Below, in pieces: positions 30,701-33,700 of a DNA stretch of 64,000 nt. The stretch comes from Escherichia coli (GTDB lineage: Bacteria; Pseudomonadota; Gammaproteobacteria; Enterobacterales; Enterobacteriaceae). The notes under the pieces were generated by a model. That model had not been told where the DNA came from and did not search any database. It saw only the letters and a program-made list of their open reading frames with translations. Both the position numbers and the translations under genes were made by a program. The DNA lies in the NCBI RefSeq assembly GCF_013122565.1, contig NZ_CP053258.1. One strand, given 5' to 3'. Each line of letters begins with the position of its first letter. Within the stretch, counting starts at the first letter, position 1.

Positions 30701-33700
30701 TTGCCGTAAATATCATTCACCGTAATGTACAGAGTGGTATCCTCGCCTGCCAATTGTGTGTCATAAAGGGTATAAAGCGAGGTGAGATGTGCCGTAGACG
30801 CATCAGCGTCGACTTGAATGGACGTGCTAAGCGTGGAGCTACCATTTTCCAGGCTAGCTTCAATGGTATCCGGTCTCGCTCCTGTTTCTCTCGAGGAGCG
30901 GGTATTGGTATAAGTGACGGTAGCTTTACCCTGTTCGTTCGTCACGGCTTGGCCACCGTTCGTCATTTCGGCAGATTTTGTTCTGCTGGTAAAGCTCACA
31001 GTCACACCTTTTACCGGAAAGCCATTATTATCAACGACTGTGGCGGTGATGACGCTGCCGGTGCTGTTCTGTGGGGTACCGGCGATTATGCTGCCTGGGA
31101 CAGGCGTCAACTCGATAATTTTTGCCGCCGTTGTGTCGCCAATAAAATGCACAGTTTTGTTGTCGCTGGCACCATTATTAGCCAGTGATGCAGTGACCGT
31201 CTGCTCACCAAAGGCAACGCCTGCGAGAGTGGCCTGCGCGATGCCAGACTCATTGGTATTACTTACTCCCGGGGTCAGGGTGAGTCCTGAAGAGGCTGAG
31301 CTGAATGTTACCGGAAGATTATTCACCTCATTGTCGAATTGATCTTTGACCGTTGCAGTTAGCGTTGCGTTATCGACGCCATTACCTGTTATCTCATTTT
31401 TTGATATCTGAAGGACAACCTGAGCCGAGGTTTTGTCCGCCACAAACGTTACCGGCTGTGAATCACTGGTATTGTTATTACTCAGCGTTGCAGTAACCGT
31501 ATGCGTACCCGCTTTTTTACCTTTGAGTGTGACATGCGCTTCCCCATTGGCCTGGGTGATGGCAATGCCGTTATTTTCGAGGGTAAAGTTTGCCGCGATG
31601 TCCTGTGGCATGGTGAAGGTCACCGTTATTCCCGCCACCGGATGATTCGACGGATCTTTCACTGTCGCCGTCAGCTGCACGCTGTCGCTGTTATTCGTCA
31701 CCACCTGTTGAGCCGGGATGTTCAGGGTGACCTGCGCGTTGCTGGCATCGGGCGCAATATTGACTATCTTCGTATCTCTGTTGCCGTTAAGCAGTATGGC
31801 TTCGGCTGTATGAACACCCAAAACCGTGCCTTTCAGGGTAACTTCAGCAACACCACTGTCGTTAGTATTGCTCGTGCTCTGACTAAGTTGCGTATCTGCC
31901 GGATTGGTACTGAAGGTGACCGGTAGGTCTTTTACTGCGTTATCAAAAGGATCTTTCACTGTTGCCGTCAGAGTCGTCTCATCCACGCCATTCCCAATGA
32001 TTTCCGCTTTCGATGTTTGCAGAACGACAACCGCGCTGTCCTTATCCGCCACGAAGGTGACTGGTTGCGCATCGCTGGCATTATTGTTACCCAGCGTTGC
32101 GGTAACCGTATGCGTGCCCGCTTTTTTGCCTTTGAGGGTGACATGCGCTTCCCCATTGGCCTGAGTGATGGCAATACCGTTATTTTCAAGGGTAAAGTTT
32201 GCCGCCACGTCCTGAGGCATGGTGAAGTTCACCGTTATTCCCGCCACCGGATGATTCGACGGATCTTTCACTGTCGCCGTCAGCTGCACGCTGTCGCTGT
32301 TATTCGTCACCACCTGTTGAGCCGGGATGTTCAGGGTGACCTGCGCGTTGCTGGCATCGGGCGCAATATTGACTATCTTCGTATCTTTGTTGCCGTTAAG
32401 CAGTATGGCTTCGGCTGTATGAACACCCAAAACCGTGCCTTTCAGGGTAACTTCAGCAACACCACTGTCGTTAGTATTGCTCGTGCTCTGACTAAGTTGC
32501 GTATCTGCCGGGTTGGTACTGAAGGTGACCGGTAGGTCTTTTACTGCGTTATCAAAAGGATCTTTCACTGTGGCTGTCAGAGTCGTCTCATCCACGCCAT
32601 TCCCAATGATTTCCGCTTTCGATGTTTGCAGAACGACAACCGCTCTGTCTTTATCCGCCACAAACGTCATTGGCTGTGCATCGCTGACATTGCTGTTAGC
32701 CAGACGAGCCGTGATCATATGCGTGCCCGCTAACGTGCCGGTCAGGGAGGCGATTGCAACCCCGTTACTATCCGTCATGCCTTTTCCTCCGTTGCTAATC
32801 GAGAACTGACTTGCGACGTCGTTTGGCACAGAGAAGGTGATTTCTTTATCTATTAGTGGATTGCCATTTTTATCCTGCAAGGTTGCCGTCAGCTGTTGCG
32901 GAGCTGTGTTGGTGACGGTGATATCACCTGAAGGCACACTGAGGGTCAGGGCAGCAGTACTTTGATCACCGATAAAATTCACCTGTTGATTAGCCTGGGA
33001 ACCAGAGCTCACAGAGGCCGTAACCCTATAATCACCATTTTTCAAACTGGTCAGCGTAGCTGTGGCGATCCCGTCGTGGCTATTCACTTCGGTTTGGCTC
33101 AGTTTCGCTGCTGCTGAATTAACATTGAAGGTGACCTTGACGTCATTGAGCAGGTTGCCTTTTGCATCCCGGACTGTCGCGGTCATTGTGGCGCTGTCAT
33201 TGCCGTCAGCGACCACTTCATTTTTCGACTTCTGCAGATCAACCTGCGCGGTACTTGAGTCACCGACAAAACTGACGATTAACGTTTGTTTCACGCCATT
33301 TTCAAGGGTGACTTCAACCGTGTTGTCTTCCTGCTTACTACTTTTCAGATCAAAAGTCGCCAGACCATTAACATCCGTTTTTGCGGTGTTTTGATTGTTA
33401 AAGGAAGTTGCCGATCCGCTTAATACCGCAAACGTGACGGTATGATCATTGATTGGGTTGCTTCCTTCATCAGCGACATTGACCGAGACGGTGTTTGCTG
33501 CATTCTCATTGGCGAGCACACCATTATTGCTGGCAGATAATGTCGCAATTTTCGCTGACTGCGGGTTGGCGTCGATGATAAATCCAGCGGTATGCAAATC
33601 TTCATTCCAGTTTTGCATTAATAGCTTCGCAGTAAGTCCACTGCCTTTGGTATAAGCGGTATAGGTTGCCTTATAGACGCCATCTGCGGTTTCTTTCCAG

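Follow-up and report, generated by a model that had tools for sequence, protein, structure and literature searches.

Length variation in YeeJ, an inverse autotransporter of Escherichia coli, is already known from two studies. Martinez-Gil et al. (2017) described two length variants of the gene, yeeJ UMN026 (long) and yeeJ MG1655 (short), which are 906 bp apart, and characterized the extra 906 bp of the long form as repeated sequence with a coding capacity of three Big domains (PMC5595812). The same work described a periplasmic LysM domain and a C-terminal, C-type lectin-like tip for YeeJ, reported that the K-12 allele is surface-exposed, and found no biofilm difference between long and short YeeJ, which is the only published functional comparison of the two forms (PMC5595812). 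YeeJ was subsequently included in the Periscope Protein listing of Whelan et al. (2021), where it occupies row 53 of Dataset S1 (A0A192CME6, E. coli) with 2-3 repeats and a DNA repeat identity of 0.98 (PMC8201768). In a review, inverse autotransporters are treated as Gram-negative Periscope Proteins, and homologous recombination is given as the likely mechanism (PMC9704523). The present analysis adds to these reports the 609-bp register of the repeat, a series of alleles with one, two and three units together with their rough frequencies, a putative gene-conversion tract, a pair of strains (ET5 and 1303) that are one unit apart, and the probable polarity and the junction of the K-12 deletion.

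The window analyzed here is a stretch of 64,000 nt from E. coli (contig NZ_CP053258.1). Its longest minus-strand ORF spans positions 27784-35841 and, when read from the annotated-type start, yields a coding sequence of 7983 bp and 2660 aa (Table 1). This gene is a yeeJ orthologue encoding an inverse autotransporter (type Ve secretion; intimin/invasin family), which agrees with the name it received in the initial annotation. The assignment is supported by Pfam domains, syntenic position and the RefSeq annotation of matching genes, which are named YeeJ. According to Pfam, the IAT_beta barrel (PF11924) occupies residues 144-419 (E = 1.2e-112) and is N-terminal to the passenger, in which 17 Big_1 and 18 Invasin_D3 stretches are arranged in tandem. 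Intimin_C (E = 0.0075) and Invasin_D4 (E = 7e-5) were each found below their curated cut-offs, and no Pfam match to LysM was obtained in YeeJ at E <= 0.01. The order of the locus, namely mtfA, tRNA-Asn, yeeJ, a family-9 glycosyltransferase gene (GT9) and shiA, is the same as in other E. coli. The nearest yeeJ allele in a complete genome is that of E. coli 1303 (98.2%), and identity to a K-12-type allele equals 94.6-98.1% when the indel is left out. The exact 2660-aa YeeJ is also present in the public protein collection (P0013), on a 4.82-Mb E. coli contig.

To measure the repeat, the window was compared with a copy of itself displaced by a fixed offset. When that offset is 609 bp, identity climbs from a background of ~30% to 90-100% between ~31480 and 32040. 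At exactly this offset, positions 31483-32052 align to 32092-32661 with 17 mismatches in 570 bp (553/570, 97.0%), and a 415-bp core within this alignment contains only 4 mismatches (99%). The two full units, copy A and copy B, differ at 29-33 of 609 nt, with 29 differences in the best full-unit register, where 7 of 203 amino acids differ and 196/203 residues are identical. The longest perfect run between the copies is 158 bp. Because 609 equals 3 x 203, the repeat is in frame, and each unit contains two Big_1 (PF02369) stretches with E about 1e-38. Among solved structures, intimin 6TPL is the closest to the unit (E = 1.5e-6). For the rest of yeeJ, the next best internal self-similarity amounts to only 61%, at an offset of 1218, so that the A/B pair stands well clear of chance and of the other Ig repeats, and the diverged downstream relative of the unit places the cassette in an older array of Ig domains. 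These observations bear out the initial annotation, which had described two consecutive in-frame copies of a cassette with two Ig-like domains at 31480-32700, far more alike than the other Ig repeats of the gene; its coordinates were accurate to within ~40 bp.

The longest period covered by Tandem Repeats Finder is 500 bp, so the 609-bp repeat lies outside its reach, and a repeat search that extended from one reference copy with an unadjusted register returned just one pair of 300 nt with 92% identity. In the region 26000-38000, Tandem Repeats Finder detected no short tandem arrays. A phase-variable contingency locus, in which repeats of 1-9 bp switch the reading frame or promoter, was considered and rejected, as the YeeJ unit is 609 bp long and in frame and short arrays are absent from 26000-38000. 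Chi sites were found neither in nor near the repeat, the only two being located in complement orientation at 28701 and 28730. Two plus-strand ORFs, 31501-31926 and 32017-32535, lie within the repeat in antisense orientation to the well-supported 8-kb gene.

Table 1. Coordinates of yeeJ and of the features of its 609-bp repeat in the window.
Feature	Coordinates	Strand	Remarks
yeeJ CDS, long ('UMN026-type') allele	27784..35766	-	2660 aa + stop; inverse autotransporter, IAT_beta barrel + ~17 Big_1
Repeat copy A, promoter-proximal	32053..32661	-	two Big_1; CDS 3106-3714, aa 1036-1238
Repeat copy B, promoter-distal	31444..32052	-	two Big_1; CDS 3715-4323, aa 1239-1441
Near-identical core in copy A	32229..32643	-	4 mismatches to 31620-32034
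Near-identical core in copy B, putative donor-type sequence	31620..32034	-	from offset comparison and diagnostic sites
Diverged downstream relative of the unit	30905..31443	-	~61% identity at offset 1218
Inter-unit (A to B) junction	32031..32122	-	5' part like end of copy B, 3' part like start of copy A
Putative minimal gene-conversion tract in copy A	32460..32545	-	all diagnostic sites B-type; maximal tract 32189-32643
Crossover interval of the ET5 loss relative to 1303	32092..32113	-	22 nt, CDS 3654-3675; partner 31483-31504
906-bp segment missing from K-12-type short alleles	31652..32557	-	flanked by 23-bp motifs, 32558-32580 and 31652-31674

Concerted evolution by intragenic gene conversion is a general phenomenon in repeated genes for bacterial surface proteins. 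The two copies of the yeeJ unit were compared at 51 diagnostic sites; a site qualified when four or more of five unconverted alleles had a fixed difference between A and B there. In copy A of the window, the first 20 diagnostic sites (unit positions 15-88) are A-type, a further 25 (positions 187-272) are B-type, and the last three (positions 544, 568 and 595) are A-type again, while copy B is B-type throughout. By permutation, this run of identity departs from a random distribution (p = 0.001). The dS of the core equals 0.031 here versus 0.24-0.31 in six unconverted alleles; synonymous sites have thus been homogenized as well, which argues against convergence at the protein level. The B-type patch in copy A measures at least 86 bp and at most ~455 bp, with A-type sequence on both sides, and we infer that it was produced by intragenic gene conversion from copy B, the A-type flank on the right consisting of three sites only. 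A patch near the 3' end of copy B that at first looked 'unique' was also considered and was rejected as ordinary allelic polymorphism that is partly present in the terminal copies of other alleles.

The converted form of copy A is not confined to this genome. Copy A of the window is identical to copy A of strain 1303 at 609/609 positions and matches ET5 at every variable site. Among the matches listed, the converted copy A was found at 99.7-99.8% identity in ~13 complete genomes from different hosts and countries, and a related form (98.5-98.7%) was found in ~14 further genomes. Altogether, the B-type-patched copy A was noted in this allele and ~14 others. Since the converted copy is common to 1303, ET5 and ~13 genomes, the event was inherited or horizontally spread and predates this strain. 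It is not strain-specific, and describing the conversion as ongoing goes beyond what can be shown with these data. Independent tracts of homogenization were noted in other lineages. For instance, the right halves of A and B are identical in NCTC9038, and copies B and C differ at 13/609 positions in G8 and at 21/609 in PCN033. The yeeJ repeat is a case of patchy concerted evolution, with different tracts in different lineages.

A mosaic of this kind might also be left by a cycle of expansion and contraction, in which an A-B allele first becomes A-B-B' and later loses one unit through unequal crossover of A with B, so that a hybrid with an A-type edge and a B-type core is followed by B'. Three-copy alleles with near-identical B and C and one-unit deletions both exist, and the left A-to-B switch in copy A fits a single crossover. 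However, the return to A-type at positions 544, 568 and 595 is more than a single crossover would give, and even with the thin support that three sites lend to this point we regard the cycle as unlikely. A single crossover followed by later mutation could result in a similar mosaic picture.

The age of the duplication was assessed at three aligned edges, namely those between the upstream domain and A, between A and B, and between B and the downstream domain. At the A-to-B junction, the 5' side is 90-93% like the end of the unit and the 3' side matches the beginning of copy A exactly, but the ~60-nt zone in the middle shares just 80% and 63-70% identity with the respective parental edges. The same junction haplotype was found in every B and C copy of all alleles examined, including those of unrelated strains. 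The divergence of A from B amounts to 66-84 of 609 nt (86-89% identity) in most two-copy alleles, and dS of the whole unit ranges from 0.29 to 0.40. The differences between A and B per 609 nt, with those in the core in brackets, number 33 (4) in the window, 30 (6) in strain 1303, 49 (22) in LCP17, 72 (45) in O157 and 84 (53) in A31. Taken together, the shared diverged junction and the wide drift between A and B in most alleles demonstrate that the tandem duplication is old, population-wide and of single origin.

A recent de novo duplication in this strain or its immediate lineage, the copies being alike because they are young, would explain why the 415-bp core is 99% identical with a dS of only 0.031, and fresh expansions do occur, as B and C are near-identical in three-copy alleles. 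This scenario is very improbable, however, given that the two- and three-copy alleles of unrelated strains have one junction, ~20% diverged from the parental edges, that the copies are 11-14% apart in most two-copy alleles, and that copy A is still A-type at 20 sites to the left and three to the right of the homogenized patch. The initial annotation had proposed either a recent duplication or ongoing gene conversion; the mosaic copy A argues for gene conversion, and the old shared junction argues against a recent duplication. The idea that the second copy or its near-identity results from mis-assembly or short-read polishing is hardly credible: repeats of such size are a known error source (PMC6868369), but copy A is identical to that of 1303 at every position and 99.7-99.8% identical in 13 independent complete genomes among the matches listed, the two-copy layout occurs in >1,200 complete genomes, the exact 2660-aa protein is found on the public 4.82-Mb contig, and the 29 ordered differences between the copies fit population haplotypes.

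Besides the conversion of an old pair of copies, homology between the units has yielded products of unequal exchange, namely one-copy alleles, three-copy alleles and, as we read it, the K-12 short allele. Compared with 1303, yeeJ of ET5 has 0 mismatches in 7374 bp, apart from a clean loss of one 609-bp unit that can be mapped to a short crossover interval (Table 1). This pair provides the cleanest evidence for recent contraction; as the loss is read from an assembly, collapse of the repeat during assembly stays a formal alternative source of the ET5 form. In KW21 and MB64, the left part of the single unit is A-type and its right part resembles copy B as found in other alleles, and such hybrids are expected of unequal crossovers.

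In K-12-type alleles, the missing segment runs between two motifs, namely CTGACAGCCACAGTGAAAGATCC in copy A (first Ig domain) and its counterpart in copy B (second Ig domain). The flanking motifs match at 21 of 23 bases, and LTATVKDP is encoded by both. At the junction, the K-12 protein reads ...GVDETTLTATVKDP followed directly by SNHPVAGITVNF... in the same chain. The first Ig domain of the unit is mostly without a close counterpart in K-12, where the best internal similarity is 62%, which suggests a deletion that left a chimeric Ig domain. From these sequence comparisons, the K-12 short allele is best read as a deletion derivative, in which the first strands of one Ig domain are fused to the rest of another at the shared LTATVKDP motif. 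This polarity is the reverse of the 2017 account, in which the 906 bp figured as an 'additional fragment'.

A query with the 609-bp unit matched 2,910 of the 5,426 complete E. coli genomes. One or more full units are present in 1,272 of the 5,426, and the other matching genomes are of the K-12 type, matching in two pieces. At least one inter-unit junction is present in about 1,214-1,225 of the 5,426 genomes according to the identity bands of a 101-bp junction query; this query also matches the upstream edge at ~85%, so only its identity bands are usable and the copy-number fractions are approximate. With the junction bands and place counts combined, a rough estimate for the long alleles is ~4% with one unit, ~90% with two and ~5% with three.

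Copy-number classes of individual alleles were set by the spacing between unique anchors flanking the repeat. A spacing of 1720 bp corresponds to two units and was found in this window, 1303, O157:H7, LCP17S3_I1, MRSN346647, 06-00048 and A31. One unit (1111 bp) was found in MB64 and KW21 and three units (2329 bp) in G8, while the K-12 type has a spacing of 814 bp. ET5 is a further one-unit allele (CDS of 7374 bp), and NCTC9038 and PCN033 are three-unit alleles. The three-unit CDS of G8 is 8592 bp long and encodes 2863 aa. Among the best 60 complete-genome matches, at least 27 genomes have three units. The protein database likewise contains three-unit YeeJ of 2863 and 2869-2880 aa and one-copy alleles of 2457/2465 aa. 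Four places matching the unit were noted in one complete genome, and no four-copy YeeJ protein was present among the top-scoring homologues. The reading frame is kept in all length classes.

As the initial annotation had anticipated, repeat number varies and alters the length of the adhesin, with one-, two- and three-copy alleles in both complete genomes and the protein database and with ET5 and 1303 one unit apart. Within clones, copy number looks stable, and instability appears to be modest on epidemiological timescales. Two units were counted in every O157:H7 genome sampled and three in each of three O166:H15 genomes, so the term 'hotspot' applies in an evolutionary sense and does not necessarily imply high-frequency change. 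The further expectation of a collapse of the repeat in short-read assemblies is probably overstated; the longest exact match between the copies is 158 bp, and many intact 2660-aa YeeJ proteins are encoded on contigs of 15-500 kb, which is the usual range for such assemblies, the platform being unrecorded.

An old cassette duplication, intragenic conversion and unequal exchange together very probably explain the feature. Under this model, a 609-bp cassette of two Big_1 domains in the YeeJ stalk was duplicated long ago, and its copies have drifted to ~86-89% identity in most long alleles. Non-reciprocal homologous recombination may then have overwritten a patch of copy A with B-type sequence, giving the 415-bp core that is 99% identical. 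Judging from established knowledge, exchange between the copies would proceed via RecA-dependent recombination or replication slippage. In O157-type alleles, the longest perfect run between copies is 74 bp, versus 158 bp here, and the homogenized copies of the window are presumably more prone to recombination than the 88% identical copies of O157:H7.

With respect to function, the stalk of YeeJ is probably rod-like, to judge by the homology of its Ig domains to intimin 6TPL. By analogy with invasin and intimin, each unit would add two Ig domains, or ~7-9 nm, to the rod. The rod would hold the C-terminal lectin-like tip off the outer membrane, and exchange of copies could alter the reach of the adhesin with the frame intact. 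It is conceivable, if rather doubtful, that the two-Ig cassette acts as a tunable spacer, with one, two or three cassettes or the K-12 deletion being selected according to O-antigen or capsule thickness or immune pressure and with sporadic conversion re-arming the switch. The evidence for such a spacer covers the variation and the conversion, whereas adaptive tuning and a high switching rate are conjecture.

For annotation and typing, yeeJ alleles should be seen as varying by 609-bp cassettes and by the 906-bp deletion. Given this cassette-wise variation, differences in yeeJ length and apparent 'truncations' in assemblies need long-read confirmation. Identity-based typing of yeeJ can in addition be misled by conversion patches. 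More generally, YeeJ represents one more Gram-negative 'periscope' adhesin, whose natural series of one, two and three cassettes, along with the chimeric-domain deletion, is usefully clean. This series opens no new question, and could serve to test how stalk length relates to adhesion through the LPS or capsule layer.

Several known systems can be compared with this locus. The gene, the locus and the long allele of the 2660-aa class are the same as in PMC5595812. In contrast to the two length classes of that study, with the 906 bp regarded as an addition, we find a 609-bp unit, alleles with one, two and three copies, a K-12 form that is apparently derived, and patchy conversion. As in intragenic conversion in general, yeeJ has a donor-type patch within recipient-type flanks, homogenization of synonymous sites and lineage-specific tracts, and nothing in it is mechanistically distinct from that general process. 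YrIlm of Yersinia ruckeri (Wrobel et al. 2018, compared here only through its citation in PMC6714894) is likewise an inverse autotransporter with almost identical Ig domains; as cited there, it belongs to another species and gene and has many more near-identical domains than YeeJ. With Periscope Proteins such as SasG, Rib/alpha C and Sgo_0707, YeeJ shares a stalk of long tandem repeats of high DNA identity, whose number is strain-variable via homologous recombination. Its 203-aa units are identical at 196/203 residues, and repeat number differs between related strains. In contrast, the classic Periscope Proteins have up to 46 copies, whereas YeeJ ranges from one to three, with copies ~88% identical in most alleles. 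Also unlike these classic examples, the repeated unit of YeeJ is a two-domain cassette amid otherwise diverged Ig domains.

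The four tRNA-Asn(GTT) genes of the window have equal Rfam tRNA scores, lie within a span of 19 kb and flank yeeJ and its neighbours. Genes for tRNA-Asn are known hot spots of integration. Between ldtA and the first of them lies an insert of ~9.4 kb that encodes two PTS EIIC-GAT permeases with two EIIA components, SorC-type and DeoR-type regulators, an RpiB/LacAB isomerase, a ribulose-phosphate 3-epimerase, an SDR and a SIS protein. In strain 1303 the tRNA-Asn gene immediately adjoins ldtA and the insert is missing, so the insert is apparently an island for sugar utilisation that sits at an asn tRNA and varies between strains. 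On the yeeJ side, mtfA and tRNA-Asn are absent from the retrieved stretch upstream of yeeJ in A31 and ET5 (loci L010 and L012), where DUF6387 and AlpA/HTH genes occupy their place; the other loci carry mtfA and tRNA-Asn upstream of yeeJ. This gene replacement suggests an integrated element at asnT, adjoining yeeJ, in these two strains. Four further RNA features score above the Rfam gathering score, namely the cobalamin riboswitch, DsrA, rseX and STnc230, and all four are expected in this region of E. coli.

Features of the window and their coordinates
Feature	Position	Strand	Source or remark
STnc230	2486-2569	-	Rfam
Cobalamin riboswitch	3636-3810	+	Rfam
ldtA	7038-7964
Insert	8126-17407		~9.4 kb
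tRNA-Asn(GTT)	17466-17541		Rfam
tRNA-Asn(GTT)	19874-19949		Rfam
tRNA-Asn(GTT)	21698-21773		Rfam
YeeJ C-terminal tip	~27784-28170		~130 aa
K-12 deletion with its two bounding motifs	31652-32580		apparent
tRNA-Asn(GTT)	36080-36155		Rfam
rseX	46960-47049	-	Rfam
DsrA	55452-55538	+	Rfam

The lectin-like C-terminal tip of YeeJ exists as several divergent cassettes, distinguished by the endings ...ATCYKNL, ...ACYKKS, ...ACYKNI and ...ACYKQI, and these pair with differing repeat numbers (yeeJ loci L004, L005 and L014; proteins P0010 and P0014). In the three loci, DNA identity to the window ends at about gene position 7673. Several complete genomes have yeeJ annotated as a frameshifted pseudogene (KW21, L007; MRSN346647, L008; A31, L010; NCTC9038, L013), and these frameshifts may be either real inactivations or long-read indel errors. 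Among the 5,426 complete genomes searched with the 609-bp unit, one contained four matching places and two matching places were on plasmids; these may reflect either an allele with four copies or additional loci resembling yeeJ.

The short yeeJ allele of K-12 type (L003) appears to be derived, by a 906-bp deletion between two LTATVKDP-coding motifs that apparently left a chimeric Ig domain. A 2017 paper worded these 906 bp of long yeeJ as an 'additional fragment' (PMC5595812). Since the K-12 allele is an apparent deletion derivative, the long yeeJ would, contrary to that wording, carry no additional fragment.
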